A stretch of 64,000 bases of DNA from Psilocybe cubensis (lineage: Eukaryota). The notes beneath the pieces were generated by a model that saw only the letters and a program-made list of their open reading frames with translations, did no database searches and was not told the DNA's origin. Numbering within the stretch: position 1 is the first letter of the stretch; each line of letters starts with the position of its first letter. Shown here piece after piece: positions 1 through 60,977 of the stretch. A program made the translations under genes and the position numbers. The stretch spans positions 124,001 through 188,000 of the forward strand of contig CM039003.1 in NCBI GenBank assembly GCA_017499595.2, in the 5' to 3' direction.

Positions 1-487
1 GGCATCTTCAAATTCGCCGTCGTCTCCACCCCTGCCGCCTCCTGAGCCCATATCGCCACCACTTCAAAATCGTGAAGTTGGATCGTCGGCACCTCCATCA
101 CCACCGGGCCCCATGTCACCACCGCGTCAAAATCGCGAAGTTGGATCAACCGCGGGATCCAACTTGCCGCCGAGTCCGGGCCATGAAGAGCCGCCGTCAC
201 CCATGCCCCCAGCGCCAGACCACCTGCCGAAAGATGTCGAGATGGACAAGATCAATGAGGATCATAGATCCTCTGATCTGTCATCCCCTGAGCCAAGCGA
301 TGACGAGGCACCCGCTGAGAAGGTGAAAGGGAAGGCAAAGCAAAAAGGGAAGGAAAAGGTGGACCCCAAGGTGTCCAATGCGGCGACGAGGACTCGTGCT
401 GGAAGAAGCGGAAAGCGCAAAGCAGCTGAGGAGCCAGAGACGCTACCTTCCCCCAAAAAACCCAGAGGAAGGGCCTCCAAAAAGTAA
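1..487 (+). CDS. 3' end of Pro/Lys-rich protein (probable transposon accessory gene), partial
   Basis: Pro-rich then basic ORF ending KKPRGRASKK-stop, followed by T-rich 3' UTR-like DNA. Confidence 0.6.
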   Translation, partial: ASSNSPSSPPLPPPEPISPPLQNREVGSSAPPSPPGPMSPPRQNREVGSTAGSNLPPSPGHEEPPSPMPPAPDHLPKDVEMDKINEDHRSSDLSSPEPSDDEAPAEKVKGKAKQKGKEKVDPKVSNAATRTRAGRSGKRKAAEEPETLPSPKKPRGRASKK

Positions 488-800
488 TCACAGGTTGGGT
501 GTGTTTTTTTATGTATGTTACCTACTTTCTTTTCCTGTGCTATATTTCATTGGTCTTTTCTTCTTGTCTCTTGGGCATTCCTACTTGGTGTTTTTTTGCT
601 TGACCAATCACTTCATTTTCTATTCTGCCTCACATAGTATATTTGCCCTATATGTCTTTATAATGTTTAATGTCCTGTATATAAAGATATTTTTCTTTTG
701 CTCCATATGTTGGATGAACAATGAGCTTTGAGTGAAAAATAAAGAAGTTTGAGTTCTATAAAAGCAATGTTATGTTGCATTAAACTAACTAAACAACCTG

Positions 801-3025
801 TTATTTCTTGGCTCTAGCTTTTCTTCTTTTTTTTGCAGTCAAGCCTAAGTTATTTGCTTCCTGGAGTGCTAAGTCGTCAGAAGTTTGCTTGCGTCGGGAG
901 GCTCTTGCCGCCGGTGGTGGAACGGGGTCATTTGCCTCCGAACTGCCAATTAATTTTTGATTTTTCTTCCTAGGCCGAGGTTGAACTTTGCGTATAGCTT
1001 TGCTAGTACCTGGCTGTTGAAGTTCAGGAGTAGGTCTTAAGGAAGAGTTTACTACTGTGGGGCTTCCATTAGTTGGGATTGTGAGTTCTTGACTATCATC
1101 CCGACGTTGTTCGGCACGAGTAACATCCCGAGGAGGATCAGCTTGAGTGTCTTCCCGATGTTCATCGGCTCGTGCTGCATCCCGAGGATTATTGGCTTGT
1201 GTGTTATCCCGTGGCTGTTCGGCCCGAATGTCATTCCGAGTGTTATCGGCCTGAGTATCATCCCGTGCACGACTTGCAGTTCCAACACCAGGGCTGTCAA
1301 CACTGATAGAATCTTGTTGAGGGTGTCCATCATGAGTATCAGAGGGATTAGATTGCTCTGAAAAACTCAAAGATGTTTGACAAGGTCTCCTACGAACTCT
1401 CCTTGAGGTAGTCAAGCGCCTTGGTGCTGGGGTTATAGGCACTGTTTGGAGACCTTCAAACAAGTTTGAAGCGTAACATGGTTCCAACAGTTCTTCATTA
1501 TCACGTGCCAATACTCTTTCAAACTTGAAAGGAATCAGTCCACGAGACTGACGCTGTCTCCAATGTCTCAGAAGAGCAGCAGTGTCATCAACGCGGAGTC
1601 TGCTCGGATCCGTGAACGGAATGGAACTTGGCCAATATTCGGGATCAATCATCTCTCCAAAATGTTTCTCCACGGAGTCCCATGGGATTCGAGATCCACT
1701 CCTATCTTTTGCCAAGGCTATAACATTTCAGCCATATGTTGAATTAATTCAATACATTACTCACCATACACTCGGTTCATATAGATTCTAATGATTGTTT
1801 TTTGTATTGCATTAGTCTCCCTCCCCTTTGAGTTGTATATAGGTGACGGAACCAATGGAAATCCATTGCTATTGAACTTCAAATCCTTTTCAAGAAAAGT
1901 GCCTGCAGGGACGGCGGGAGTTGATACTCCGTTTTCAATCTCTGAAACCTTGACAAGATATTTCACAAACGCCCTTCTGAACGACTTTAATTCATCTGGA
2001 AATAGTTGTCCAAATGAAGGAATGCGAGGGTCATCCAACCCTAGATCGTGTGTTTGTGTCCTGTTAATGAGTTAGCATCAAGTTGTTAATGATTGGGACA
2101 ACAGGTTGTCCCGTCCTCATGACCGGCACAATGTAATCCCGAAGGTCATCGGGAGCCACATACATCCCGAAAAACAGAAGTGTTCAAATAACAAAATAAC
2201 TCACATTGAGTATTCAATTTTTCCATCAAGATCGTAATGGCCTTCAAATGTAATAGATCTCATTCCCATCCTCAGCCACTTGATTCGATCCATTTGGTGA
2301 AGAATCTTCTTTCCTTGTCGTTTCGCAGTCCTATGGATGGGTAAGCATCGGAGCCGAGTAATGCCGCCGAACGTACTTTGCTTTCAAAGTCTTGGAGAAA
2401 CCCTTCTTTTTCCACTCCTCTAATATTCGAGCATATTCCTCTCTCTCCGCAATGGTAAGTCTAGATTCAACTCGTTTTCTTGCCTGCTGATAAAACTTGA
2501 TCCATTGCGGGCTACCCCGTCTTGCATTTCCCGATAAAAGCTGCACTTCTTCTTCAATTTCGGCTGCCTTTTTCTCCCGAAAAACACTTTGAAAGGTTGC
2601 TCGTCCATGCATACCATCCAATTTGGTATTTCGAGGGGTTGAGGCATGGTTTGCAAACCAATTAAAGAGTCTCTAGCATTTTATGTTAGCCTCTATTTCA
2701 TAATAAAGACATGACTTACATCTTTCTTAGCTTTCCATTCATTGAACAAGGCTTTATCGGCTCTCATCGCAACCTCCGAATACTTGTGATCCCATGTGGC
2801 TTTGATTAACGGCACAATAGTATTCCGAATAAAGTCTGATTTAGATAATCTCGGTGCGTCTTTGTAGTTTTGAACGTTGCCTCTCAGAATTCTCATCTCC
2901 CTAGCTGTCCACAGTTGTTCCTCGTCGGGAGGAATATCGGGCCCGACAGTGCCGCCGGGCGGAGGGACAGAAGGTCTGCGACCTGAATTGTCAGAGGTGT
3001 TTGAGGGAGGAGGTTGAGGAGGCAT
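801..3025 (-). CDS. KDZ-associated helical DNA-binding-like protein (WFxN motif, HMG-like segment), 5 exons
   Basis: Hand-spliced GT-AG exons join in frame: ...WKAKKD|RLFNWFANH...EREEYARILEEWKKKG...|MTQTHDLGLDDPRIPSF...|ALAKDRSGSRIPW...; basic NLS-like C-terminus KKRRKARAKK. Confidence 0.75.
1086..1265 (-). repeat. In-frame 54-bp (18-aa) tandem repeat, ~3.3 copies
   Basis: RDDTQADNTRNDIRAEQP / RDNTQANNPRDAARADEH / REDTQADPPRDVTRAEQR / RDDSQE. Confidence 0.85.
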
Positions 3026-3906
3026 TTGTACAAAGGGATGGGCATCATATTAGCTTATCAACGAATGACTGAATAATCTACCACCAACCGGAGATAAAAT
3101 AAGATTTTGATCTTGATTACTATTTTAAGACATGGGAAACTACTTAATCTGGCAATCCCGCCCAAACGTCGGGGACAGCGAGCAAACATCTCTTGTCATC
3201 ATCACACACAATCACAAAGTATATTCACTATAGCTCACCCAGTTCTTTCTCTATCCTCTCACAATTTTGAGAGCAGTAAATTGTATATGTATTAATTGAA
3301 TTTCTGTATATAAGACTGTTATATCTCACATGGAAATGTTTAAAAATGTAAAAGTAAGCAAATGACTTTCCACCTCCAATCTTAAAAAAATTGAAACGGT
3401 GAATATCTAAGAGTCTGTGTAAAGTACTCTAAACTGTGTTTCTTGTGCAAAGAAATTGGAATCCCAGCAAGTTCAAATTGGGCAACATTTCAGTAAATTG
3501 CATATATCTTCTCACATACATGGATTTAAATTTGCTAAACACTATCATTGGATAGACATTTAAAATACCTTTCATATGATATATGCCGGAGGAGTAGGGA
3601 GCATGTGCATGAAGAGTTATGGCCAAAATACTTCAGGAGAGTGGTTTTGAGAGGTCATTGTAGATCACATTATGCATTTCTGTTGGGATCACGACCATTT
3701 TCTGCACATCCAAAATGAAACTTGTTCATAAAACTGGCTACAGTTCTCCAAATTCCTTGCAAGATAGATCATATGAAAGCTATTTCCTCCCTCGAAAAGG
3801 TTATGTAGACTAAAATAAATTTAATGCACATTGTGAAGAGCTATCAATGGAATACTGTATTTAGAATGAAATTCACAGGTGCTCAGACACTTTGCTTCCC
3901 ACTTCC

Positions 3907-6900
3907 ATGGGCTTTCATACTGTGCCAGATAATGGATCAGATAGCGACGGCCCTAAGGAGGCAAGCTGGTCTTCTGGGGCTTCAAGGAAAAGAGGAAGGC
4001 CAAGGAAATATAGACCTGATACAAGCCATTCTTCCACTTCTATTCCTCTACCTGCCCAAAACATGTTACAACACTTTGAACACAATATAGATGAATCAGA
4101 CATACCTCACTATCCGGGAGATCTGACAGACCAGCAGGTAATTGACAACTTGAGAGAGTTACAGGATGTTAGGACGGGAGGAAAGGTATATCCGTGTCAA
4201 TGGATTGAGGTGTTCTTGCTCACAAATTATTATCTTAGTCTCAAAATGACTACCTTAGAGAGTGGCTTCCAAAGAGAGAAATATACCTCGGGACACTCAT
4301 TGGTCGGGAGGCGCCTCCTCCGCGTCGGGATAATCAATGCCAGCAATGCCAAAGACTCCCGGGATGTTGGAGATGCCTTGAATGTTTTGGATCTCAACTT
4401 GTTTGCCCTCACTGTCTGAGACAAAACCATCAACTGGTTCCGTTTCACCGAGTCGAGAAATGGACAGGGGAGTACTTTCGTCCTGGAGGTTTATGGGAAG
4501 TGGGTATTAGGTTGTATCTTGGTCATAATGGGAAGAGGTGTCCAGTACAATTGCCCTTAAACGAGAGTACCCACGGGACAAGCATTGGAGCCGAAGGATA
4601 TGTTGGAAACGGGATTCAATCTGCCGCCGAAAACAACTATTGGAGCGGCACATCACTTGCCGCCGATGAATATAGCAGGAACGGGACTCGTGATGCCGCC
4701 GAAGTTACGGATACTCATGACATTGGTCCAACACCAGCAAACAATGACGAAGAGTCTTTCACATCTCAGCTTCTTGCAGATCCTGAAATCCCAACTCTGT
4801 TTGAACTGGACGATGGAGACGATGAGGATATCAACTTGTATGAGGAACTTGATACAAGCTTCCACGATCAACCCCGTCCAAGGGCAGAAGATAATGATGG
4901 TATCCCATTCAAAGTTATTATTCATACATCCGGAGTACACTATCTACCCGTTCGGACTTGTACTTGCCGATCTGCCATGCTGCCTTTGGATTTGCAATAT
5001 CTGGAAATGGGTCTTTTTGCTACTAGTTTTCAGAATATCCGAACCTTGTTTACACTGGAAGTGCTGGAGGATTTTAGGGTTACCAACCTTGAATGCAAAA
5101 CCTCGGGCTATCAATATTATCAAAAGCTCAGACGCATTACCTCACCTTCATTTCCCAAACAGGTTCTGAACCGCTATCGGGAACTGAGAAGGCTTAGTCG
5201 CCAATACAGAAACCTTATATTGCACAAAATACACGGTCAAGGACACTCTGAACAGGCTCTAAAGGCTTATATGGAGTTGAAATACCCACAACAAGGCTCC
5301 GAAATGCATCCCGATCAGGAACCTTTCGGCTCAATAACACCTCCGGAACCAGGGCAAACACGGAACAATTCTTCGTCCCGACAATCGGAACCAAATGAAG
5401 ATTCCGAACGGAATGATACAACATCCCGGTTGGAAGTTGATCCAGGTGATTCTGACCCAAATAATATGTCACCTGAACCTCCGTCCAGAAACGAGCCAGA
5501 TAAAAGAGGGTCCTTGACATTGTTCTGTCCAGCGTGTCCACAGCCAGGTGTTAACCTACCTGATGACTGGGTTCTCGAAGCCGATAGGTAAGCAGAATGC
5601 CTTCATTCAATTATTGGGCTCACATTATATTAGTGATATCTATATTCGTAGCTATGTGGCAGATGGAAACTTCAAAGCCGATCATTTGAATCAAAAAAAC
5701 GAGGGAGACGACGTCTGGCTCAGTGTTGGAGAAGGTTTTATGACCGATCCTGGGCCATACAAGGAGCATATAAAGGAAGCTATTTCTCTGGCACCACGTT
5801 ATAAACGGGTAAGTGTATTGCCGCCGCGGCTCAACATACTCCCGATTAACAACTTTTCCAGGAACCAACTTGTCACAACTACCATGCACAAAAAGCAGAG
5901 AATAGAGTTAGCCCTGGAAAACGCGTTAGAGGAATAGGCGCCCATGCGTGTGCAAGACATGGATGCTTTTGTCCTAACAGTGTTGTTGATTTCGACAAAG
6001 GAGAGAAGCAAATGCACATGGATTGGTCCTTAACACAGGCAAGGGAAACAACAAATACTAAAGGCATCACTAGGCATCTGGAAATTTACGATATCAACTG
6101 CCAATATTGTGTCAATCTCATGAAGCGTCTGACTGACTCTACAAAGATGCACTGGCCCCCCTCTGTCAAAATAACCTTTGCTATTGGTCTTTTCCATGTC
6201 CATGGGCATAAATCTGAATGCTTGTACAATTATGCCTCAACCTACATTCCGGGCGTTGGAATTATTGATGGAGAAATATTGGAACCTCTCTGGTCCGTCC
6301 TCAATGATACTTCCCGAAGTACTCGTTCGGCAACCACTGCACACCGCGCTGAAGTTCTGGATGACCACATGGGTGATTCAAATTGGAAAAAAACAATAAA
6401 CATGGGTAAGTACTTCTACTACTATGGAGTCTGCTGTGCTAATTTCTTGTTTGCAAAGCTGCCACCATAGCGGCCAAGTACAAGCGGGCCGGTGAACAGT
6501 CCGGTATAACGGAAGCATTCTACCGAAATCTTACGGAACAACAACCTCCCGAGCTAGTTGACACATGGGAGCAAGAAATCAAACAGGCCGAGTTTGATCG
6601 GGATCAAGGAGTATCCGATGCTATGAGTCAAGTAATGGCAAGCAAAGTGAAAACTGCTGCCGGAAGACAAGAAATTGAATTACATCTCTCAAATATGGAG
6701 CTGACTTCCTCGGGAGCTACAGGCAAAGCTGCTTGGATTTCATCTGGCTTGAAATTGGAACAAGCTCAGTATGTTTTCTATTTTTTTGAATTTTATATAT
6801 TTTTATACCCTACAGATTAGAGCTAAGAAGCCATGTTCGCAAACTTGGAACTCATCCATCCACAGCTCAACAGCTTGATTTGGTTAATAAACGTCGGTCA

Positions 6901-7893
6901 ATGCGAACACGAGTTGAGGCTTTCAGCCGTACTGCATTGACATTCTTGGGGGAAGAGGCTTTGGAGAGTATTCAAGGAGTTAATACCCCAGTTCTTGACG
7001 ACGAAGTCAGCGATGATGAGATAGCCGACATCGGGAATGTCAACATCACCCGGGCGGATCCGGAACGGCAACCTCTCCCGTTCCCGTCAGCACTGCTTGA
7101 TGATTATTTCCGAGATCTTGAAGAAGGCATGGCTCACCAACTTAAAGGGCTGCAAAAACTCGAGTTACGCATTCGCCAGGGCCATGCTGAAGATTGCCTT
7201 GAGGCAGTTAGATCAGCCCTGATTCAGCTCTCGTGGCAATATAAATATCAAGTCCGCATGGCAGATTCGGTATACACAGGCACCCGCGCATGGGATGGAG
7301 TCAAACTGTTGAATGCATCTTGGAAATTGCACAAAAAGATATACAATGCAAACCGAATAGCAATGATTCGGATTGCCGGTCATTCCGAAGAGGATATTAT
7401 GCAGATACGGAGGGAGTTTCCTGTTTTATATGACCATGATTGCAAGCACAGTGCGGCAATTTCGGATCCGAATGTTCGGGGCGGCAGTTCCGACCGGCTT
7501 AGTTGGATTTGGAGATCCCGCCAGGGACTCAATGCTGATAACCAATTATATGTAAACGAATGTGAGTTATCTTTTCTCTTGACTCTACAAACTATCTAAA
7601 ATTTGCAAGTCTTTCGTCTTAACTGGCTCAGAGCTCGGGCACAAAGAAACAGATGGAAAGAAGAACTATCCCTGACAAACAAAGAAATGGAATGGACAGT
7701 GAGATTTTATGTCCACATGGCCAAGACTTGGAAGGAACGGCATGAAATTGTTCCGGACCGCTTGGCAGGTCATAGGGCTTTCTGTCAGAAGCAGATAGCA
7801 ATGTGGAATGACTTGGGGCGGGCCGCCGATGTCAAATTCCGGAAGATAAACGGCAATTATCCCTCCGTGTGGATTTTTATAACTACAAATTAG
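3907..7893 (+). CDS. CxC2-type KDZ transposase, 7 exons, apparently intact
   Basis: CxC2 motifs (WRCLECFG...CPHC...H...PFHRVEKWTG, LGHNGKRCP, CTC, FCPACPQPG). KDZ core motifs (ADGNFK, ACARHGCF, DFDKGEKQ, YDINCQY, FHVHGH, DGEILEPLWS, LDDHMGDSNWKK). C-terminal FRLNWLRARAQRNRWKEE. All six introns splice in frame. Confidence 0.92.
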
Positions 7894-7969
7894 GTCATCT
7901 GTTCTATTCACTAGACTTGTAATCTATATATTTCTCCAACTAACTGATCAATATTGCCACAAGACCACC

Positions 7970-9751
7970 ATGAGCCTTCCTCGTATCTTCAATCCCCCTA
8001 CTGAAGATGAACACTATCTTCTCAGCTACGATGAAAGACGTGCTTTAGCAAAGCTGCATGTTCATTTGTGTGGTGCTCGGATCCGAACTGGATACCGATT
8101 GTTACTTAGTTCGGCATCAAGCGTGCCGCCGGACACTTTGGCAAGATGGCTCTCATTGTTGGAAAGAGAGGCAGTAAGTGAGATGATTCTTTTAATTCTT
8201 CATTTATTCAAATAAAGTTGCAGGCTATATTGCTCAGAGTTCTTGGATATTGTTATATAAATGGATTTGCTGTCGATACCTCTTTCTTCATAGCAGAAAT
8301 CCTTAACCAATCTGTCCATGCTGTTCTCAATAGCAACCCCCATCATAATGCTGTTCTCTTTCAATCACTTAACCAGTGCTGGTCAGCAGAGGAAGATAAC
8401 GATATTTTAAAATCAACAAAACCATGGGGCTACTGGTGGGAACCTGGACATAAAGCCGACGAAGATTGGAAAGTCTCTGATGTCACAATTGAGTCTCAGG
8501 TCAGAGAGTTTTGGAATAAGGTACCTATAGAACCATATTTATTTTATATAATTGTTTGTTAATAAATCTACATAGATTGTTCTCCCGCGATATGCAGAAG
8601 AGCTCAAGTTGAGCAAGAAAGGTGGTCCATCTGAGTCTGCGGCACAAACCCATTCCGCCGCTCCGGCGGCAGCACAGCACTCCGAAAGGCCCACGCCGGG
8701 AGCCAATTACCCCGATCAACCTTTGGCGGATGCCCCTCACCCCATTTCGTCAATTTCCTCAGCTTTAAACCGTCAAAAAAGCTCCGGAAGTTCCAAAAAA
8801 ACAGCTCCACAAGGTTCAGCATCAAAGGCAAGGGATAGCTTTCCTTCAGGACCTCAGGCCTCCAAACAACCTTCTGGAAGCCGCTCCGCTGCCCCGCCGG
8901 TTGCCAATACTCGGGATCATATGTCTCCCATTGCCATCTCGGACCATAGGCCTCCCTACTGCCCCAAATGCGGGCAGCCAATTTTTACACGTGTTATGAG
9001 ATCTTTGGCCAATCTTCGTCTTAACCTTGCAGATATGAGGAAAACTGCTGATGAAGCCGTAGCCCACTTTTCTGACCTGGTGGGCCGATATTCAATCATA
9101 GAAAACATAGCTTACGAGTATGGGAGGCCTCCTTTTGAGAATAACTTTTCACTCCCCGACGAATACAAGCTTCAGCATCCAGAACACCCAAAATCTGATG
9201 GCTGGAACGCTCGTCTATCCGAAATGCAATACAATGCTCTTTCTCAAATGAATGATGCCTCATTCTGTATTAATGGCATCTTTTATTCATTTGTCGCCTT
9301 GAAAGAGCTTCCTTTCCACCCCCCTTGGCTGTATTCTACACCAATATCGAGGGTTGTCAACGTTCAAACGGCTCCGGAGACTGCCGCCGAATCATCGGAT
9401 CCAAACGTCATCCCGGTCAAACCTTTTGCCGTTTCGGCTTCCAGTTCTTCCACAAACGAGGTATTTGTTCTGGATCCACGCGCATCCTTGAACAATTATA
9501 GAGAAAATAATGACGACTGTGCGTCTTCCTCTTCTTCTGGCACATCTGTTCCTGCAGATTATTTAGAACAATTGGCAGAACAAATTGAAGATGAAGAAGA
9601 TTTTGAAGAGTTCTCGGACGTCATGGAAGATTCAGAAGTTTCTGATGATGAAACACAATCTCATAATGACTGGAGCTATGAAGATGAAGATCAAGATGAT
9701 GATCAAGACAGTAGTTACAATTTAGATAACAATTTCAATACTTCGCAATGA
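7970..9751 (+). CDS. Uncharacterised KDZ-element accessory protein (helical N-terminus, CPKC motif, acidic tail), 3 exons
   Basis: Exons ~7970-8173, 8224-8520 and 8576-9751 join in frame; D/E-rich C-terminus. Confidence 0.75.
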
Positions 9752-9765
9752 GATCAATTTAAAAT

Positions 9766-11006
9766 CTACAAGTTTTGAAGAATATCGGAGGAAGTTGACC
9801 ATCCCGCTTTGCTAACTCCTAGTCGTTCCAAAACCAATCTACGCATATAAAAGGCTAAAACTGCTCTGTCTCCATTACATATTACCCCGTGCTGTAGCAC
9901 TCTTCCAGAAATTGCAAATAATGTTGTTGGATCATACTTGTACCTTATGCCAACTCCTGGAAGTTCAATTCTCCCATTTTCATAGTTGCCCAATGGCATG
10001 AGCAAATCATACCATGGGTGACAAGACCCGTTATCACGATGAAAAGGTGTGTCCCTATTGCTGATGACACTGATGACGCCAAAGGGGGAAGTCCAGAAAG
10101 TGAGGATATGCTTCAAAAGTTCAGCCTTGTGAATGATCTCGGGTTGAGACGATATCCGCTCGAGGAACTCAATTCCGGCCCGAAACTGTGCCGGATGAAT
10201 AATACTCAGGATGGCTCCGATCAATGCCGAAGTAGTCATTAGACCGGCAATAAATGATAGTCCGTCGGGATGTGTGAGATCAGCCGAAACCTCCAACGGA
10301 TTGGATTGCTGCCAAAGCATTCAAATCAATAAGTCACAGAAGGAATAAAACACCCTACCTCATGCCCCTGCTGAAACCAAGCAGGTGAAAAGTTGGCATT
10401 TCCTGGGCGCAGCCAGGCAGACTCATGTCTGAAGTAAGTTTTGTTGGCCCTCCAGCTAGTTGATGAAGGGGTCATACGAATGAGACCTTCAATATTTTGT
10501 AGCATTTTCCATGTAGAATTCTGAGGTTTTCAGATATTTACCTGACATTCATTTAAAGCACTCACCACCCGTCTTTCCGTCAAGATTCCAGGCAAATACC
10601 ATGCCAGAATGTTCCCCTCACTATCAGCCACAGTTCCGGGTTTGCACCGATACAGCATTGGAAGATGTATTGGTGGAAATAAATTTTTTAGATTGTCTTC
10701 AACAGCATCGTTTCTTCCAGTGCAACGTTCTGACAAGTGTTCAATATAATTGTTTGCATTCCATTTAGTTTGCTCTAATGTGGTATAAGGCAGTCTGAGA
10801 CCTTGACTTTTGGGTAAATTTCTTTAGCACTTACCTTGATTTGAGCGGGCCTCCAGAATTATTTCAACAGCTAGATTACACTCATACAATGTTTCGGCAG
10901 TCATATCTTCCGGAATCAATGTAGGCATTCCATTGTTGACCTTGCTTGCCATGTATGATTGCATGTAAGTAGAAAGGGCTCGGGTCATATCAATGGGCTG
11001 ACTCAT
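9766..11006 (-). CDS. TET/JBP family 2-oxoglutarate/Fe(II) dioxygenase, 4 exons
   Basis: GNILAWYLPGIL, SPAWFQQGH, NRDTPFHRD (HxD), LQHGV (distal His) and DRAVLAFYMR (2OG-binding Arg). Exons splice in frame from ATG 11006. Confidence 0.9.
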
Positions 11007-11194
11007 TATGTTTGAAGACAGTGGGTTGGTAGGTGAATCGATTATCGGAGGCACTGATTAATGTAATTTTTGGGTATGTTATGTCCCGGGTTCTTCAAAC
11101 ACGGCTCATATTTTCCCGCGTCAAGCATAGCTTTCGGAGTAGATAAGGTACCGCAAGCTAATATTACGGCTTGGACTGATCCTGTGATTCATTT

Positions 11195-11390
11195 ACGGGC
11201 AGAATATGACGGCCCGTGGACGAGTCCTGCGAGCAGTCGGCTCCGAATTTTGCCGTGATGCGCAGACGGGTCAAATATGACGGTCCGTCATGGGCCAGCG
11301 AGGGGGCCATTTATTTATAAATGGCCCGTGTGGCAAGGGCTAAATTAGCCGTTCCAGCTGGACCGTAGGGGACGGGCTATTTTTAGTTTA
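11195..11390. repeat. Subterminal direct repeats and palindromes of the KDZ element
   Basis: acgggcagaatatgacggcccgt (11195-11217) ~ acgggtcaaatatgacggtccgt (11266-11288); gggccatttat-tt-ataaatggccc (11304-11327); ggctaa-a-ttagcc (11338-11350). Confidence 0.7.
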
Positions 11391-11393
11391 GTA

Positions 11394-11881
11394 CTTATTG
11401 TAAATCACTCCGTATGTTACGTTAATTCATCATTTTTAAATATATCGTAAGGTACGTAATTATACAACTGTCCTATGTGCCACTGCTGTTTCTGCATCCC
11501 CGCCCCCGCTATCCCAGTAGCAGACAAACCCTCCCAGCCCTGCACCTGCGTCGCATTCGCCACAAGCCCATTATTCAAGTCCAAATACGTCCCCGTGCGT
11601 ATGTTCTGCAACGTGTACACATCGCATCTTCCAGGAACAGATTTGATCAACCATTGCTGGTTGAATGTGTCCTCGGTGGTGGATTCAATGTGGAGTTGAC
11701 ATGGTGTGCCATTTGCTGATCTCGCTGTGTGGCCGATGATGATGTCAGTATAGGTCAACGTAGCATTTGGAGTTGGAAATGGGTTGATTAATTTACCTTG
11801 GGATAGGGCCAACATCATGTTGTTCCCATTGAACTGCTTCCTGTTGGAAATTGTATATACGTGGTTTGCGATGAAAGCCAT
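11394..11881 (-). pseudogene. Ricin-B (beta-trefoil) lectin-like gene, probably truncated by the transposon
   Basis: YTISN...QQWLI and YTLQNIRTGTYLDL...QQWHI subdomains; 72-nt GT-AG intron 11796-11725; no signal peptide; third subdomain missing. Confidence 0.65.
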
Positions 11882-13891
11882 ACTGGTTTTGAATCTTCAG
11901 CTAAAGACGTTAAAGTATGAAATGAATGTGCTGTCTTATCTGCTCACTCTCCATACGCACCCTTTATACCATCCAATAAATCCTATCAAAATCGTATTTC
12001 ATGAGCATTCTCGTAGATGAGGGTAAGTTGTCACTCCGTGATCGAAGCTACTGTTGGTGTGGAAGCACGCACCAGTCTTATTTAGACAATTGTGTTATCC
12101 CAAGCTTCCCATAGCGTCGTTTAAACCATCGCGGGTCCAGATACCTTCCAAAATTGTGCCGACAGACGCACCAGGTTATCATCCGTTCGTTTCCATCTTT
12201 TCATATACTTCATAGATGGCATTACTGGGCTGGGGTGTGAGTTATCGGCCCATCTTATAGACTTCAGAGTGTCAATTTGATGGTCGGGTGAGGGATTTGG
12301 CCGATGAAAGAAGGATAGCTTAATCCAAAGAGGTGTGTGCATACCAGAAGGCGGCAAGATGTTGATCAAGCGGTACCTGACGGTCAAAGTACAGGTCTAT
12401 AAGCCAATAGACACTGAAAGGGGTGTACAGGGGGCAGGAGTAGCTGCGTAGTCTGGGTCGATCAGTCTGCCAGTATTCACTGGAGTAAAGCGTAAGGAGG
12501 TAAAGCAGATGAATGGGGAACTTAAGGAACCCTTACCAAAACAGCTTTGAAACGTCCATGAGATCGGGTCATAGCTGGACGCTACAGTGCATGTCAGCCT
12601 CCACATATGGGAAATGAATACACATCAGGCCTAATGATGTAATGGCACAGAGACTGTCTTGTGCAGCCATTTCCTTTAGCTTCTCTTAACGAATGATGAC
12701 ATGGACACGTTGAGGTTTAGAGGTAGAGAAGCGTTCGGTGCAGTTTCCAACATCATTGAAACTCCGCTTTGAGCTCAGTTCCACGGTCATGCGACGGACA
12801 ACAACGATTGAAATATGTTTCGTGTCGTGATAGCTTGACGAATTGCATTATCAACTTGGTACCATGCTTCATATCGCAGTTGAGAAAGAACATTCGTGTA
12901 AATACATATTGGTTAACGCCTAGATAAAATCGTAGTAGCTGTGAATGATTGATTGTATCACCACTCTGTGTGTGAATGCCCGTGGGACTAAAGGGTAACA
13001 GAGCCGAAGCTTATTTATAATTTGCAACTTAGATGTATAGCAGGATACTCGACCGTACACGGCTGAATGCGGGGGCCTTGAGAACTTCTGGGCCTATTTG
13101 TCACATCCAAAATAATGTACTTTTGGAAACCGGATCCTGCTTCCGGTGCTAGACGCAATCAAACGTGGTGGGGTGGGTGCTTTCAGCAGCAGAAAGGAAA
13201 ATCTTCTGAACCAAACGTACACTATTTGTAGGAAACTGGTCATGCTGATGATGAGCGCTGATGACAGGCAACTGATCTGGCTAAGAAGCTGAATATCATC
13301 ACAGTCTATAGAAAAGTCAAGGAGTTCATGACACTTTATGCCATGAATAGAAGCTGATAATCAAATGAGAGGAACATATCAGTCTCACATTTTCCCGACA
13401 TTGATATGAACCTATCGATTTCTTCGTCCCGGTTTCAGCGGTGTCTTGGGGGATATTCGGCCTACATGTATTAAATGCAAATGTGAACCGACCAAACGTC
13501 TACTATCAGGACCTCGCACATGTGATTTCCCCTGCGTAAAATTATCCACCCTCTGAATCCGGATCCACTAACGATTTGATTTGTTAAATTGTTCGGATAC
13601 CAGAAGCTATGGGTATAGGATGACAGGTTACATCAATAGATTCGTTCAATGTTGGCCGAACTATTGATCATGATATTCAGCGCCGATGGCTAGTTTCCTG
13701 AATAGAAAGCCAGCAATTCCTATAATAATGACTAAGAAATGTAGGACATGTTTGTGCTATTAATACGTACTGATAATCAAAGGTCAGGAGCATGTAACAT
13801 TGGAGCTACATATATTGGATCTGTACATTGAAAACAACGGAAAGAGGCCATCATCCCTCCATCCTTCTCACACTGTGGTACTTGTAGTTCC

Positions 13892-15613
13892 ATGAATTCG
13901 ACATCTGCTTTACCCTCACAGGAGTCTCTGAAGACACTGGTCCACACTCTTGAAATAATTCAATTAACTAGAATCCTTAGAGGTGCGCGACCATCCTACC
14001 TTGTTGACTGTCCGCTAGCTTACTGAATCAATCAGTGTCCGCTGTCTGCATTATCATGTACGATTATAGTATGTTGTTGTTGTTGTTTGGTGAATGCAGT
14101 TCCTAATCATTCAAAGTCATCACATTTGACCAAGAGGTAGGCGCAAACATCCTTGATTCCTTCGCTCAGATTAAAATACTGCATACTGACACTATATGAA
14201 TGATCTTAGGTGTCATTCCTATGGGTAAGCAGTCAAAATTCCTGTTTCATTTGATCATTTCATATTTATTTTGCTCAATATGTATGATAGAGTAAACGAC
14301 CCTCACTCATAAAGATACTGTTCTTTTTGGTTAGTGAGATTACGCCTTTCCCTTCAGAAGCGAACAACCGTGAACTGGTAAATGGTAGAATCGCTATTAT
14401 TTTCTCGGGACTTCAATGTTAGCTTTTTCCTTTGCATCTCATGCCATTTACTGATTTATTTTCTAGATATGTCCTTTATGGTAGCTAAAGCATTCTAAGT
14501 AATGAATTTATTCCCCATCGCTGATTAAAAGAATCATCTAGGATTCTTTTTTCCGGCTGTGAATGATAAAGTATGTGTGTTTGCAAAGAAATTGTTGTCG
14601 TTGTTTTCTGACTTCTTGATTCAGTTGTATGTCTTTTTGCACCTAGATGTTGTGAACAAAATTCGCTAACTCTGTTCTATGCTTTTCGTCTCAGTTGTGA
14701 GCCATTTAGTTACAGACCTTCCATGAGTGCAATATCTGACTATATGTCGCAGGCCTAAACTTCATGAGATGGCAGGCATGGACAACATTTCTAGGAACAT
14801 TATTTTCGCAAGGCAAGCATCACCACGTCTACAATGCAGAGAGAATTGATATAGTTTCATATGTTCAGCCATTCTTCAGGTCAGACTATATGCCCTCTAT
14901 TCCAAAAGCCGGAAGCTACTTGCTTTCCTGCTGCCCTTCTACGTTTTATCATCCCTGGGATCTATGTTTGTTGTCCGTCAAACGGTAATACAGCTCTCAG
15001 TCGGTGAGTATTGCTGGTTAACGTTTTCAAATACAATTTCTGATTAATTTCGAGTAAAGATCATAATGCTATGGCAATCCCAATACCAGGAGGACACTTC
15101 TGCGTCGTTGCCCATAGTCCAACATTTATATATGCATTTTGGATACCAGCCTTCGCTTTTGACTGGACGCTCTGCGCACTAGCTATCCGTAGAGGATATT
15201 TGTGTTTCAAAAATTTGAAATCATATGGCCCACAATCCAGCTACACAACGGGTATTCGCATTATGGATATCCTAGTTAGAGACTCTGGTCTTTATTTCAT
15301 TGCGTAAGTCGGAGAGACGCGTCATGACTATTGGGTTATCTCATATTGACCACTTACCAGAATGGCTGTCACATACCTCGTTTGCATGGTTATTTGGATA
15401 GTGGATTTGGTAAGATATCAAAAACTGTGCTTGTGTCGCTGATAGGCCTTCTGTTTCTTGCTAGTGTCGAGTCTGACATTACCTCTCATTTTACAGGAAC
15501 TTTTTGATGCACCAGTAGGGTTCTCAATTGCCATGTCTTCCACTCTTTGCAACCGCCTGGTACTCAGAGTTCACATGGCTTTATCCGAACGTCCTGGTAT
15601 TCCATCGAGTTAA
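13892..15613 (+). CDS. DUF6533 multi-pass (7TM-like) membrane protein, many short exons
   Basis: YDY..TFDQEVSFLW N-terminal motif, ILQVRLYALY, ILVRDSGLYF, CNRLVLRV; includes two 2-nt exons and a GC-AG intron. Confidence 0.85.
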
Positions 15614-15707: not shown

Positions 15708-17717
15708 CTAGTCAGCTTCATTATCAATGTTGCGGACAATCTTCAACATAAATAAATATACAATTCTGACTTGCACCAGCTGTTCAAACACAAACCACCC
15801 TAAGTCCTTTGAATCTTCTGTGGAATGAAAGTAGCCTACGCGCCTAAAGTCTCCCCCCTCAGCAGCAATAACAATTAAACCAACCGCGTACGATTCTTTA
15901 AGGTTCCATCTCACAGGAACAGCCCAAACCTCTTCAACAGATTCGCTTTCCTCGGCACTATCAGGATATGAACATGCGACACAAACCCGTTCTCCTTCTC
16001 GGAAAACAAACAAATCAGGCATCTCCGCCGTAGGATTCCACGTTACCCTGACCAGCGCAGCACGCAACTGCAATACCCCTCCTACTACCCCACCAAATAT
16101 GACCATCTCGCTGGCTAGCATCACACTGCAGTAGACAACCTTACACTCCGAAATACTGTATCTGTCAGTGTCCAGCCTTGAATCGTCTTCCGTCCCTGTA
16201 TTGACATGTCCGTCGACTGCCGCCCACGACCAAGATGGCGCGCGGTACTGCACTGGACGCGGGTGCCTTTTTGCGTAGTTCTTGAGCCAGAGGAGGTCTT
16301 CTACCAGCGTATGCCGCCATATACCGGCGAGGTACTCGCTCCTAGGCCAGACACGTTGGAACTGAGCAGCCACACCCGAAAGGGCTACCAGCTTGTCAGA
16401 AGGCGCGGTCATGTTGCGCTGGGAATAGTCTTCCAGGATATAATTCCATGCGCGTCTGGCTTCATCCATCTCCCGCTGCGAGGGGATACTATCCACCCCA
16501 CCTGTGTAAGTGTTAAAGACGGCCCTGGGCAGCCGCTTTCCACTGACAGATGGACACACGGCGTCTCCGATATTTACTGTTTCTGTCTGACAACAGTACT
16601 GCAATGTATGTGAGGCGTAGATCATAGATCTTGGTGAAAGCATGCGCTCCTGTAGACACCAGGCGCGACTGCTGACAGGCTCCGACAACTCTTCATACTG
16701 TTTCCAGACTGGCGAGAGACAAACGGACCCCAACGTTCGATCCGGACACAAAAACGGCACTCGTGTGTCCCTCTCCACAGTTGAATCTGGTCGGTCTTGC
16801 ATAAACCCTTCGCTGACCCTTCCAGCACTTGCGGCGACGATGGTGAGGTGCGCATCGTGGTAAATCCGTCTCATATCGGAAATCTCGCAGTTTTTATCGG
16901 CCTGAGAGTCCTGAAGAATGCAAAGAGCATCCACCCAGAGGTATCGTAGCCCATAACGATGGGTGGCAATGATAGCGTCTTGGATTGTCTTCGGTAGTTC
17001 CTCGAGATCAAGTTTTTTCATACGCACATCGATGTTCTCGGTTGTAGTGCATGGCTGCGGTTCTCCCCACACGTAACTCAGTGCTACATATTCATCCATC
17101 ATGCCTTTGGTGATGAAAATCCTTGGTGTCATTGGTTTAGCACAGTCAATAACACGGGTTGGAAGCCTGCTTTTCTGCGGCTTTGGGCACCCATGATGAT
17201 AAGTAATGCAATGTGCCATACAGTCTAGTGCTTGCCTATAGCTCTTAGGGGACAACACTCAGCGTACAAGGTCCCTTGCGTTGATATACCGAGCAGCAGC
17301 GTCATCTAAAGATCATCAGTGAGGTAAGCACCCGTAGAAAAAGTCGAACCTGCCCTCTTTAGTATAGGTATAAAACGTCGCACTCGGCCGACCGTTAATC
17401 CCCAGCCTCAAGGTCTTCCGCCCCTTCAGCATCGTACCTGGATTCTCAATCTGCGTGCGGAACCCAACCGTCACACTGAGTTTGGCCTCATCGATAGGGA
17501 TCGCCTCATCCTTCACAGACAAAAGAAGCTTACACCAGGTGCACTCAGCCTCTGCAGAGTTCTGTACGTCTTCCCATGTAGTTGAGTAGGAGGATCCACC
17601 GAGCAGGGTCTGCGATGCCAGAGCCTTTTGAAACGGGATAAAGGAAAAGAGATTGCTTCGGCATGTTTTACACACGATAACTGGGAAATCTCTAGCCTCA
17701 ACCGAGATATCATTCAT
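15708..17717 (-). pseudogene. HET-domain (heterokaryon incompatibility type) protein with in-frame TGA at 17261-17259
   Basis: LPTRVIDC, YVALSYVWG, LPKTIQDAI, YLWVDALCILQD, RAWCLQER, DKLVALSG, YLAGIW, YRAPSWSWA. The splice to DDAAARYINARDLVR hits TGA before VLSPKSY. Confidence 0.8.
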
Positions 17718-20569: not shown

Positions 20570-21452
20570 CACTGCGGGCGCCGACCGCTGTAAGTTAAAC
20601 ATACAGCAGAAAACTTACATGTCTTATGTAAGTTTCGCTGTAAATTCAACATACAGCACACGTGTATGAAAAACAAACACTCGACAAAGACATATTGTGT
20701 TTGGTGGCTGTATGCCGACCAAACACAATTGCTGTAAGTAGACTGTAAATAAAATAAACACCTAAATTACACAAATTGTGTTTGTCCGGTGTTAGTAAAA
20801 CATACACATTTTCTGTAAATGACACAAACAGCACTTGCTGTAAGTAAAATTTACATACAAAGAACACTATTTGTGTATGTCAGACTTACACCATTAAATG
20901 AATTGAAAAACTTGTGTAAGTATAACATACACAAATTGTTTTCTTTGTGTGTAATTTCTACTTACAGTAAGTGCTGTTTGTATTACTTACAGACACCGCT
21001 GGCGCTCATACATATTTTCAAAGAAAATAAGACCCAGTAATTATGTTTCCTACATTTTTTTGACGTATTTTATTGGAATATAGGCTTCGGGCTTCCCTAA
21101 TTGGGTAACCCCGGACTCTATATACGAGAAAAATATGTCAAAAACCAACAAGAAACATAATTACCGATACATATTTTTCTATCAAATATGTATCAGCGCC
21201 AGCAGTGAGAAAATGTGTATGTTTTACTAACACCGGACAAACACAATTTGTGTAATTTAGGTGTTTATTCTATTTACAGTCTACTTACAGCAATTGTGTT
21301 TGGTCGGCATACAGCCACCAAACACAATATGTCTTTGTTAAATTTTTGTTTTCCCGACACATATGCTGTAAGTTGAACATACACCTAAACTTACATAAGA
21401 CATGTAAGTTTACTGCTGTATGTTTAACTTACAGCAGTCGGCGCCCGCAGTG
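20570..21452. mobile_element. Non-autonomous CACTA/CMC-like fold-back MITE (CACTG termini, 3-bp TSD AGA)
   Basis: Starts CACTGCGGGCGCCGAC, ends GTCGGCGCCCGCAGTG; AGA at 20567-20569 and 21453-21455; arms complementary along most of the length. Confidence 0.92.
20994..21207. mobile_element. 214-bp CACTG-type MITE nested in the right arm of the previous MITE (TSD AGA)
   Basis: CACCGCTGGCGCTCATACATATTT ... AAATATGTATCAGCGCCAGCAGTG; AGA on both sides; removing it restores the host arm's symmetry. Confidence 0.88.
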
Positions 21453-51451: not shown

Positions 51452-53030
51452 ATGCGTACAATGTACTATCATTTTCGCAGTGCAGTGATATGGGTTCTCA
51501 TCGACAACTTATGCTTTTTTCTACGAGGTGTTTCAGGTTTGGTAACAGTTACAGACTCGTCCACATTGTCCATCGTATGTCAATGCTTCATCGCAGCTAG
51601 CACGTTTTAATTCTTCATCTCAAACCATCACAGGAGATCCCTCCACTTTCTTTTGCCGTCCTTGGACAAAATGCGTCTTTCCGACACAACAGCACTAGGG
51701 ACCTGTTTAATCCTACTAATTCAACTCCACCATTCTTCCAGATATTTCATCCCGATTTCCGAAATGTTCTCGGGCCCAATGCTTCTATCAGACGGATAGC
51801 AATGAATACCACCTTTGCATTTGGAAGTTTTGCATTCGAAGCTCCGATTTTCAATCCTCCGACCAACGAGTTGTTCTTTTCCAGCGTCGTTCTTCCTCCT
51901 GAGAGTAGTATGACCCACAACAATCACATTAGTAAAATAGACATGGCACTCGTTGAAAAGGAACTATCAAGCACCGAGAAAGATATCAATGTCCCGTTCA
52001 CAGTGGTGAGTCTGTCATATTAATTTGTTTTACTAAAATTTATTGATCCTTTCTGATTATCCTTCCTGCACCAGCTTTCTCTACCAGAAACTGTTCAGAT
52101 TACAAACGGGGCGACAGGCCCTTTCCGAGGCTCGTTGCTTCTGACAACCCGAGGCCGAGCTGAGCTGCCATCTGCTCTGGTATTACTGAATCCAAAACCA
52201 CCCAATAATGCCACGGTCCTTCTAGACAATTTCTTTGGACGTCAGTTTAACTCCATGAATGACCTCAAGATACACCCGAGTGGGAATATATTTTTCACTG
52301 ATGATAGGTAGGAGTTCCATCTGGTGATCAATATCTCCCAGTCAGACAACTTAGGGTATACCTCCAGCCTTGCCTTTACAGACAACGAAAGGCCGCCTCC
52401 TTTGCTCCCAAGCCAGACCTATATGTTTGATCCAAGAACAGGTCTAGTTAAAATGGTAGCCGATGGGGTAGTCGTCCCTAACGGAATCGCGTTCAGCCCG
52501 GACGGCACAATAGCTTATATGTAAGTGCTGCCCATTCATTACATTCCTCCATGGTGAACCAGGCTTTTAAATCAATCAGAGCCGATTCTGCTTCTGTGGC
52601 AACTGATCAAACTCGACCAGCTACAATGTATGGTTTTACCCCCTAACAGACATATACCATCCATTACATCGTTTGTCCTAGCTATGCTTTTGACGTTGAT
52701 CCAGAGTCGTTTACATTCAAGAATCGCCGGGTCCTATGTTACATTGATTCTGGAATACCAGATGGAGTTCAAGTAGATACTGAAGGAAATGTGTACGTTG
52801 CTAGCGGCGATGGTGTTCAAGTAAGTATTGAAAAGTCAACTGTACAAACGAAATTGCTGAAAGAATCCATCCAGGTGTTCAGAAAAGATGGTGTTATTCT
52901 TGGAAAGCTGTTTTTTGGAGCAAGGGTGGCCAACATGGCATTCGCAGGAGATGGAAACTTGGTGGTACTCGTCAGTAGTGCAATTTTTCTCGCCAAAATT
53001 AACGCCAAAAGTGCCCTGGTCTCTATATAA
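51452..53030 (+). CDS. SMP-30/gluconolactonase family protein 1
   Basis: FAFEAP, GRQFNSMNDL, FFTD, PNGIAFSPDG, GIPDGVQVDTEGNVY, ANMAFAG; hydrophobic N-terminus; start codon approximate. Confidence 0.85.
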
Positions 53031-53676: not shown

Positions 53677-55231
53677 ATGCGAGAGGTTTCAAGTTTCTTA
53701 ACTCTATTCAAGTTCTCTGCGAAACTTACTATACTCACCATATGTCTCACAGCAAAGTTAGTAGGGGCTTCAGGTAACTCAACCGTTGTTTCGACTGGAG
53801 AGACTGTTGTAAGTACTTTTATCCCTGAACACTAACCTGTGGTTATCCCTGACCTTAAATTAGATTGTATCTCCTTTGTCGTTCGCTGTACTTGGTCAAA
53901 ATGCTACATTTCGGCAAAACTTTAAAGACTTTTTCAACCCAACCAACTCTACACCTCCATTCTTTCAATTATTTCACCCTGGGTTTCAGGCCATTCTTGG
54001 TTCAAATGCATTTGTCAGGAGAATAGCAACAAATACCACGTTCGCATCGGGTAGCTTTGCATTTGAAGCACCTATCTTCAACCCCCCAACGAATGAGTTG
54101 TTCTTTGCGAGTGGTCTTCTTCCACCCGAGAGCAGCATGACACATAATAATCGAGTCAGTAAAATTAACATGACTATGGTTGACATCTCCTTGGAGCGTA
54201 AAGCCACAGATATCAATATTCCTTTCACGACGGTAAGTTGTATGTTCTGGTCATTTATTGAATTCATTTGGTATGTAGCTATCACTTCCGGAAACTGTCC
54301 AAGTTACCAACGGAGGTACTGGTCCGTTCAAAGGATCACTGCTGTTTGCGACTCGTGGTCGCCAGAACCTTCCTCCTGCATTAGTTTTGGTCAACCCAAC
54401 GGCCCCTAACAATGCAACTGTGCTTCTCGACAACTTTTTTGGCCGTCAATTCAACTCAATGAATGACCTCAAAATTCATCCCAGCGGCAACATCTTTTTT
54501 ACGGACGACACGTGCGTGACTCCAGTATCTTCAACATAGTGCTCATTTTCAATTGTGTGTTCATTGTAACGTAGTTTTGGGTTTGTGAACGATCAGAGAC
54601 CTCCACCTTCGCTACCCAGTCAAAGCTATATGTTCGATCCGGAAACAGGTCTCGTCAGAATGGTGTCAGATGGAGCCATCACTCCAAACGGAATAGCATT
54701 CAATGCGGACGGTAGTGTCGCGTATATGTGCGTATATTTAAGACCGTCTTTTACAAATCTATTGTGACGTACTTGAAGAGCCGACTCGTCAGCGCTGATC
54801 AACAACACTCTTTCTGCCACAATGTGAGCCCCGTCGCTGGCACAGGTCTTACGACCTTCACATATATTTTACAGATACGCTTATGATGTCGACGCGAAGA
54901 CCTTTGCATTCAATAATCGCAGAGTTTTTGCCTTTATTGATACGGGAATACCTGATGGAATACAGGTCGATACCAATGGAAACGTTTACGCTGGTTGCGG
55001 TGACGGAGTCCAGGTATGAAATGTTTCATGCCCCAAGTTGGCTTTGATCCCTGACCGTTTGAATGCGATGAACAGATCTTTAGAGAGGATGGTGTATTGC
55101 TAGGAAAGATATTTGTAGGAGCGAATGTAGCGAATATGGCGTTCGCAGGTGACGGAAGACTTGTCATCCTAGCTGGAAGCTCTATTTTCCTTGCACAAAT
55201 TGAGGCAAAAAGTGCGCTGTTTACAATCTAG
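53677..55231 (+). CDS. SMP-30/gluconolactonase family protein 2 (tandem paralog)
   Basis: Same motifs and intron layout: FAFEAP, GRQFNSMNDL, PNGIAF, GIPDGIQVDTNGNVY. Confidence 0.85.
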
Positions 55232-60257: not shown

Positions 60258-60977
60258 CACTGCAGGCTCCGATACATGTTTGATGTCAAACATTGACAAT
60301 CAAACAGATATTATGTAGGATGTAGATGTTTGATGTCACGCACATATTGTGTTTGACAACAAACAGGCTTCAGACATAAATTGTGTTTGAACTCTGTGTG
60401 ACATCAAACACCAAATATGTTTGAGCACTGTTTGTTAAAAAATATTAGCCTGACATAATACCTGTTTGAATAGCTGTATGATAAGTTTCTGTAAGAGATC
60501 AACCATAAAATCCGTATCTTATCTAACATGAATATCAAACATATTTTATATAAGCATTCAACCAGAATATTTGTCCGAAATCAAACAATTATCAAACATC
60601 CATTTTTTCTCGCATCTGATTGGTTCATACATATCTGTTTGGCAATCTGTTTGATTTCGGACAAATATTCTGTTTGAATGCTTATATAAAATATGTTTGA
60701 TATTCATGTTAGATAAGATACGGATTATATGGTTGATCTCTTACAGAACCTCATCATACAGCTATTCAAACAGGTATTATGTCAGGCTAATATTTTTTAA
60801 CAAACAGTGCTCAAACATATTTGGTGTTTGATGTCACACAGAGTTCAAACACAATTTATGTCTGAAGCCTGTTTGTTGCCATACACAATATGTGCGTGAC
60901 ATCAAACATCTACATCCTACATAATATCTGTTTGATTGTCGATGTTTGACATCAAACATGTATCGGAGTCCGCAGTG
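60258..60977. mobile_element. 720-bp CACTG-type fold-back MITE (TSD TAT)
   Basis: CACTGCAGGCTCCGATAC ... GTATCGGAGTCCGCAGTG; TAT at 60255-60257 and 60978-60980; ~330-bp near-perfect inverted arms with a ~60-bp spacer. Confidence 0.92.

Follow-up and report, generated by a model that had tools for sequence, protein, structure and literature searches.

Architecture and termini of the element

The window, a stretch of 64,000 nucleotides of Psilocybe cubensis DNA (C6:124,001-188,000), opens inside a large KDZ-class transposon and includes its right-hand portion, followed by part of the host gene into which it is inserted (Table 1). Six genes make up the element: a transposase with CxC2 and KDZ domains, a TET/JBP dioxygenase and four accessory genes, here termed A, B, D and F. 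The original prediction counted three accessory genes, and the total rises to four because the sixth gene of the element, F, lies wholly outside the window. Its description of the other genes holds: genes B and D, the transposase and the TET gene each form a single open frame joined across GT..AG introns, and the partial fifth gene at the left edge corresponds to the last exon of gene A. The splice models, which include 21 introns in all, are predicted, and they are supported by conservation in other copies of the element and by the match of gene B to a public protein, a Psilocybe cubensis entry in UniRef that is identical to the model at every residue.

Table 1. Positions of the element, its genes and the flanking host gene (window numbering unless C6 is given).
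Feature	Position	Strand	Description
KDZ element, whole	C6:119,715-135,479		15,765 bp, both ends located
Part left of window			4,286 bp; left TIR, gene F and most of gene A
Part in window	1..11479		right 11,479 bp
Gene F	wholly left of window	-	348 aa, one GC..AG intron
Gene A, in-window part	1..487	+	end of last, proline-rich exon; whole gene 790 aa
Gene B	801..3025	-	5 exons, 646 aa; candidate DNA-binding protein
KDZ transposase	3907..7893	+	7 exons, 1,228 aa; CxC2 and KDZ domains
Gene D	7970..9751	+	3 exons, 558 aa; no known family
TET/JBP dioxygenase	9766..11006	-	4 exons, 361 aa
Right TIR	11225..11479		255 bp, 99.2% identity to left TIR
Right TSD copy	11480..11486		CCACTGC, 7 bp
Host ricin-B (beta-trefoil) lectin gene, 5′ part	11480..12320	-	outside element, interrupted by the insertion

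The exon frames of the transposase match the Pfam profiles KDZ (E=2e-38, 133 bits, cut-off 26.6) and CxC2 (E=2e-20, 73 bits, cut-off 27), and the protein thus combines a KDZ domain with the N-terminal CxC zinc-chelating domain characteristic of the KDZ class. It also carries the motifs ADGNF, YDINC, FHVHGH and DGEILE, which we take to be the site of the catalytic D/D/E residues. With six open frames and a transposase that retains the expected acidic and histidine motifs, the element may be autonomous, as was originally proposed.

A query made from the right end gave 12 matches in the genome, and comparison of the copies places the boundary of their common sequence at position 11,479. The right end was set there rather than at 11,393, the limit first proposed, because sequence common to other copies extends 86 bp beyond the latter position. 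The matching left terminus that the original prediction called for lies outside the window at C6:119,715 and is accompanied by the 7-bp TSD. The TIR starts 5′-CACATAGGACAG. Three young copies have CA..TG termini (CACATAGG..CCTATGTG), and the copy on C12 ends in CATATAGG..CCTATGTG. All four copies for which two ends are available have defined termini and a 7-bp TSD, the sequence of which is different at each site: CCACTGC (C6), TAAGGCC (C17), GGTGCAC (C2) and GCATTTG (C12). An 8-bp TSD, as reported for Zisupton and Dileera (PMC12730594), is absent from these four copies, as the eighth base differs in every one.

Copies, insertion sites and selection

Two other full copies, on C17 and C2, are nearly identical to that on C6. 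The C17 copy differs from it by 9 substitutions in 15.8 kb; in the C2 copy, over the same length, 7 substitutions are accompanied by two small insertions (1 and 6 bp). These three copies are more than 99.9% identical, occupy unrelated sites and have intact frames and splice sites for all six genes, which, together with a site that is empty in other isolates (see below), bears out the earlier suggestion that the element is young. At 91.6% identity, the C12 copy is broken in all six genes by stops or frameshifts, and a copy on C8 is 93% identical and has ∼3.75 kb inserted in its transposase; the left part of the latter was not found within the 24 kb examined.

The genome contains 29 TET matches, of which 5 belong to the same family, 22 to a sister family and 2 to more distant elements. 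TETs of the sister family are 63-68% identical to that of the element, and their 22 loci have 22 different flanks and thus correspond to 22 insertions. Two sister copies viewed in full are 15.6-15.7 kb long, with 318-bp TIRs and the six genes in matching order and orientation, and a 7-bp TSD is present in both of the two sister copies checked.

Four of 16 public sequencing runs (X9, X13, X14 and X15) were aligned to positions 1-15,000 of the window. Two of the four, which come from two studies, reveal the empty site: in X9, a set of DNA contigs, and in X15, whose contigs probably derive from RNA, the right flank from position 11,480 joins the sequence that precedes the left TSD, and the 7-mer is present once. 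The presence/absence polymorphism whose search had been proposed is therefore real. The flanking gene contains a lectin frame that matches Pfam RicinB_lectin_2 (E=7e-12), and a deep X15 contig spanning positions 11,678-12,320 has three skips that correspond to minus-strand GT..AG introns. From the frame and this spliced contig, it follows that the insertion splits a lectin gene from which another isolate makes a spliced transcript. No RNA run was listed as carrying the element, and X15, the one RNA-like run aligned, has zero depth over it, which is uninformative for or against expression.

In X13 and X14, 140 and 141 reads exit the element at position 11,479 with an agreement of 0.39, indicating several flanks. 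The loose ends in X13, X14 and X9 have consensus heads unlike any of the 10 flanks of the loci compared; the mixed consensus of X13 and X14 is weak evidence, and the single X9 contig is firmer. The depth ratios of 4.9 and 5.9 are not copy numbers, since older copies contribute to them, as does cross-mapping at 90% likeness.

A segmental duplication of a host gene cluster, or an assembly artefact, might also place similar sequences at several loci, and one copy does lie on a short contig of 74,668 bp. However, flanks and 7-bp TSD differ from copy to copy, and two other runs have the empty site with a single 7-mer. The TSDs and the empty site refute this explanation, to which we give practically no credence. 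The element is an intact, recently mobile and strain-polymorphic transposon of the TET-carrying Kyakuja type. We are confident in reading it as a cut-and-paste DNA transposon that moved recently and belongs to the Kyakuja lineage within the KDZ class; judging from its family, the transposase would bind the TIRs and integrate the element through a 7-nt staggered cut.

All six genes have been under purifying selection, with dN/dS values of 0.18-0.43 relative to the dead C12 copy (F 0.27, A 0.37, B 0.42, transposase 0.43, D 0.29, TET 0.18). Comparison with the sister family yields pN values of 0.18-0.46 and pS values of 0.64-0.89 over aligned codons that are free of stops, with synonymous sites at or near saturation. 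The aligned codons cover most of the transposase (1,186 of 1,228) and TET (357 of 361), and smaller shares of B (393 of 646), D (394 of 558), F (140 of 348) and A (199 of 790). Gene A presents the weakest case for selection, with a dN/dS of 0.51 relative to the sister family over its 199 of 790 codons. Because of these selection data, we regard the accessory genes as maintained parts of the element rather than freshly captured debris.

The same data bear on whether the copy at this locus, although it moved recently, is now silent, its open frames reflecting youth only and a helper elsewhere perhaps having moved it. The question is one of present activity and leaves the identity of the element untouched. 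Broken older copies (C12 and C8) and CpG-biased decay are in keeping with a silent copy, and the 96 matches to the KDZ profile in the genome, which are exons and not copies, represent other possible transposases. However, purifying selection has acted on all six genes along the lineage, and the TIR is specific to its family, resembling that of the sister family across the outer 80 bp only, at 75%. We hold a silent copy to be possible, though somewhat short of probable.

The TET/JBP enzyme, accessory proteins and CpG decay

The exon frame of the dioxygenase matches Pfam Tet_JBP (E=4e-17), and its last exon aligns with CcTET (PDB 7VPN; E=6e-23 across 151 residues). It retains H271, D273, H321 and R329, including the HxD...H triad, and has Asp at the position of CcTET D337 and Ser at that of G331. 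These features identify an AG-type TET within the termini of the element, a type assignment based on motifs and resemblance to CcTET rather than on a tree. Kyakuja TETs have Gly or Ser at the G331 position, and retention of D337 with Ser at 331 has been read as compatible with both 5mC and 6mA as substrates (PMC12730594). Homology to CcTET suggests that the element may alter DNA methylation.

Gene B has 348 relatives at E<=0.001 among representatives clustered at 50% identity. A structure model based on an alignment of 73 sequences (the query plus 72 of 150 listed matches) is confident across most of residues 40-430, and predicts a helical bundle (37-117), an HMG-like domain (125-193), a GTF2I-like domain (293-426) and a disordered tail. 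The best structural match is to GTF2I repeats (2d99; Z 7.2, rmsd 3.6, 89 aligned, residues 293-426), which a profile search also finds (E=0.006). Residues 125-193 match several HMG chains with Z values of 4.4-5.4 (best 6l34_A; Z 5.4, rmsd 2.7, 60 aligned), and Pfam HMG_box_2 is found in 5 of the 73 family members, gene B itself not being among them. A Foldseek search with gene B gave no match at E<=0.001, and the Atlas matches of its exon 2 are unnamed clusters only. Because all Z values are below 8 and Foldseek gave no significant match, these folds are treated as leads, and gene B bears a weak resemblance to a multi-domain DNA binder with predicted HMG and GTF2I-like folds. Iyer and colleagues reportedly associated a gene with an HMG domain with TET/JBP-transposase pairs of fungi.

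The other accessory proteins offer fewer clues. Gene A encodes a charged tract rich in E, R and K and a tail rich in Pro, and its two CxxCx6C half-motifs, at residues 413 and 449, are separated by 36 residues. Its match to Pfam Zn_clus, the six-cysteine (Zn2Cys6) binuclear cluster, falls under the cut-off of 21 (E=0.021, 15.4 bits), and a comparison with 1,303 candidates (329-2,000 aa) gave no outside homologue, which is weak evidence of absence. Gene D has one CxxC motif and an acidic tail; its homologue search returned three matches, all from Psilocybe cubensis, and its best Atlas score, 0.85 to an unnamed cluster, is a lead only. Gene F has no Pfam match in its three exon frames. Matches of exon frames to Pfam CTD7, DUF6241 and YDR124W-like were discounted as sub-threshold.

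The young copies carry a pattern of substitutions typical of CpG decay. C>T or G>A changes make up 12 of the 15 substitutions in the three copies, and 10 of these 12 occur in CpG context (expected 17%; p=7e-7). Likewise, 25 of 41 such changes are at CpG in the sister family (p=4e-8), for which 12 young copies were picked from the 22 loci as having no more than 15 differences from the majority. The CpG observed/expected ratio is 0.72 in the young copies and has dropped to 0.52 in the C12 copy. A rough control is provided by flank SNPs, where 9 of 25 transitions touch a CpG in one allele among the best-supported 39, with 696 further rows outside the count; the CpG excess over these SNPs is modest (p=0.04 for the family of the element and p=0.13 for the sister family). 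These patterns suggest that the copies may be CpG-methylated for much of the time. Given the CpG-biased changes, the TET enzyme probably does not fully shield the element, and the data fit full protection less well than a relief of silencing that is partial and perhaps limited to certain stages or untargeted.

The mechanism that we favour is built largely on what is typical of the protein families involved. TET would act as an Fe(II)/2-oxoglutarate enzyme that oxidizes 5-methylcytosine, and possibly also 6mA, and oxidation of 5mC would ease silencing by CpG methylation enough to allow occasional expression of the element's genes. Such protection would be partial and probably not confined to the element itself. 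More tentatively, gene B might bend or bind DNA for a transpososome or at the two divergent promoters (F/A and B/transposase), and gene A might be a zinc-cluster-like regulator; genes D and F are conserved.

A different outcome would follow if TET wrote a stable mark (5hmC, 5fC or 5caC) or acted on 6mA, changing chromatin without demethylation. Retention of the D337 position with Ser at G331 is a pattern compatible with both substrates, oxidized marks have been discussed as regulators in their own right (PMC12730594), and ongoing CpG decay fits an absence of true erasure. However, the replaced Gly is a residue reported to aid 6mA recognition, so that Ser in its place may weaken this activity. 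On balance we hold this alternative to be possible but less likely than not.

Partial and untargeted relief can also be set against a targeted form of anti-silencing, in which B, A or both would bind element DNA and recruit TET for family-specific demethylation, comparable to the plant Vandal elements, which regulate their own silencing in a way that is sequence-specific (cited in PMC12730594). The six-gene order is fixed in two families whose proteins are 37-73% identical over aligned codons, and gene B, with its several predicted DNA-binding-like folds, is also present in a more distant TET-carrying element on C13. Conversely, CpG transitions predominate in the young copies, and the CpG observed/expected ratio is 0.72 in the element, lower than in seven blocks further along the window (0.79-0.97). 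Moreover, oxidized mC in Coprinopsis was found also on other transposons and on centromeres (relayed in PMC12730594, which speculates that such enzymes are non-specific in their action). We judge targeting to be improbable. Its boldest form is similarly unlikely: B and A would recognize the TIRs or divergent promoters and bring TET to them, making the element a self-targeting, fungal counterpart of Vandal equipped with a catalytic eraser; the family would still be mobile and would disrupt expressed host genes.

Significance and relation to known systems

The contribution of this locus is modest. The ends are placed exactly and bear long TIRs, the layout of six genes is conserved and under selection, the insertion has hit an expressed lectin gene, and there is a hint that CpG decay continues despite the presence of TET; otherwise the element is an ordinary example of a kind already described. 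That young copies show CpG-biased decay is slight evidence that the element is not kept unmethylated by the TET gene it carries. According to PMC12730594, no experiment has tested the function of transposon-encoded TET/JBP genes, and the element offers a usable test case: it is intact, low-copy and strain-polymorphic, its ends are exact, and it resides in a cultivable mushroom with public sequencing runs.

As the original prediction stated, KDZ transposons with TET/JBP genes are known from mushrooms, and this kind of element has been published. Kojima 2025 (PMC12730594) describes TET-carrying Kyakuja elements of Agaricomycotina, such as Kyakuja-1_LB and Kyakuja-2_LB, with complete examples across five orders, 7-bp TSDs and CA..TG ends. 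The element shares with them a KDZ transposase and a CcTET-like (AG-type) TET in one unit, the 7-bp TSD (four of four copies here) and the CA..TG ends. Its first 12 bases match those of Kyakuja-1_LB at 11 of 12 positions, and 11 of the 29 Kyakuja rows among those listed in Table S1 of that paper start CACATnnnnCAG, as it does. Its size also lies within the range of 9 to >30 kb for the rows listed there. By TSD length, termini and TET type, and not by a tree, the element appears to match the TET-carrying Kyakuja lineage.

However, the two Laccaria families, Kyakuja-1_LB and Kyakuja-2_LB, are described as being without TIRs (PMC12730594), a description of these two families and not a rule for the lineage. 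Because its 255-bp TIRs are 99.2% identical, the element was not filed in either family. Psilocybe does not occur in the supplement of PMC12730594, Table S1 included, and the passages of the paper that were covered describe neither accessory genes nor strain polymorphism of Kyakuja; long-TIR families or their gene sets may already be contained in its Figure 1 or full consensus sequences. Among the matches listed in a literature search on Kyakuja and Psilocybe cubensis transposons, there was no description of this element.

For the enzyme, the closest reference is CcTET of Coprinopsis cinerea (PDB 7VPN, 7W5P and 8JKK), which has the same HxD motif, distal His and D337 position, but has G331 where the element's TET has Ser and is 430 rather than 361 aa long. 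For the transposon as a whole, a further parallel is provided by KDZ1-3 of Cryptococcus, large KDZ elements of the Dileera clade that have been shown to move (PMC11343200). Unlike the element, they have an 8-bp TSD, CxC1 instead of CxC2 and a size of 9-11 kb, and TET is not mentioned for them in the available part of that paper. Nevertheless, their TIRs are long as well (236 bp in KDZ1) and they carry additional ORFs of unknown function (PMC11343200), and therefore long TIRs and accessory genes, as described for KDZ1, are features already represented in the KDZ class.

Variant, young and more distant copies

Two public sequencing runs, X13 and X14, contain variant copies of the main element in which parts of gene D are deleted (window 8172-8414 and 8457-8546), together with 1-bp deletions in the transposase region at window 5736 and 7572. 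These deletion-bearing variants indicate that intact copies coexist with defective relatives. The young copy on C17 lies on a short contig (74,668 bp), within a region of imperfect tandem-like repeats.

Two further TET/KDZ elements are present in the genome. The degenerate element on C12 has a terminus that is 80% identical, its gene F is split by a 2.9-kb insertion, and it carries an inverted duplication of 3.6 kb with 99.7% identity. In the element on C13, the transposase and TET share one strand.

Features of the window and of the distant elements
Feature	Location	Strand	Details
Ricin-B lectin gene, split by main element	window 11480-12320 + L013 (locus holding the element's left end) left of 5715	-	Pfam domain match, X15 contigs
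HET (heterokaryon incompatibility) domain frame	window 15708-17258	-	516 aa; Pfam E=1e-30
Long AT-rich palindromic elements (n=2)	window 20570-21452; 60258-60977		arms of 245 nt (93% complementarity) and 330 nt (97%), respectively
Direct repeat, 257 nt	window 51700-51956; 53927-54183		71% identity; spacing 2.2 kb
Degenerate TET/KDZ element, more distant from main element	G000:C12:1,610,718-1,636,230 (L068, L026-L028)
Third TET+ KDZ element	G000:C13:1,408,822-1,424,400 (L064-L066)		TET (34%), gene B (25%), transposase

Repeats elsewhere in the window

The palindromic elements have short motifs in common and look like MITEs or foldback elements. The 257-nt direct repeat probably reflects tandem paralogous genes.

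The lectin gene at the insertion site

In run X15, whose contigs are probably RNA, the ricin-B lectin gene is unbroken and spliced, with high contig depth. Another spliced X15 contig, with a single minus-strand intron (12480-12536), maps upstream of this gene at window 12377-12708. Mushroom lectins of the ricin-B type are frequently defence proteins.
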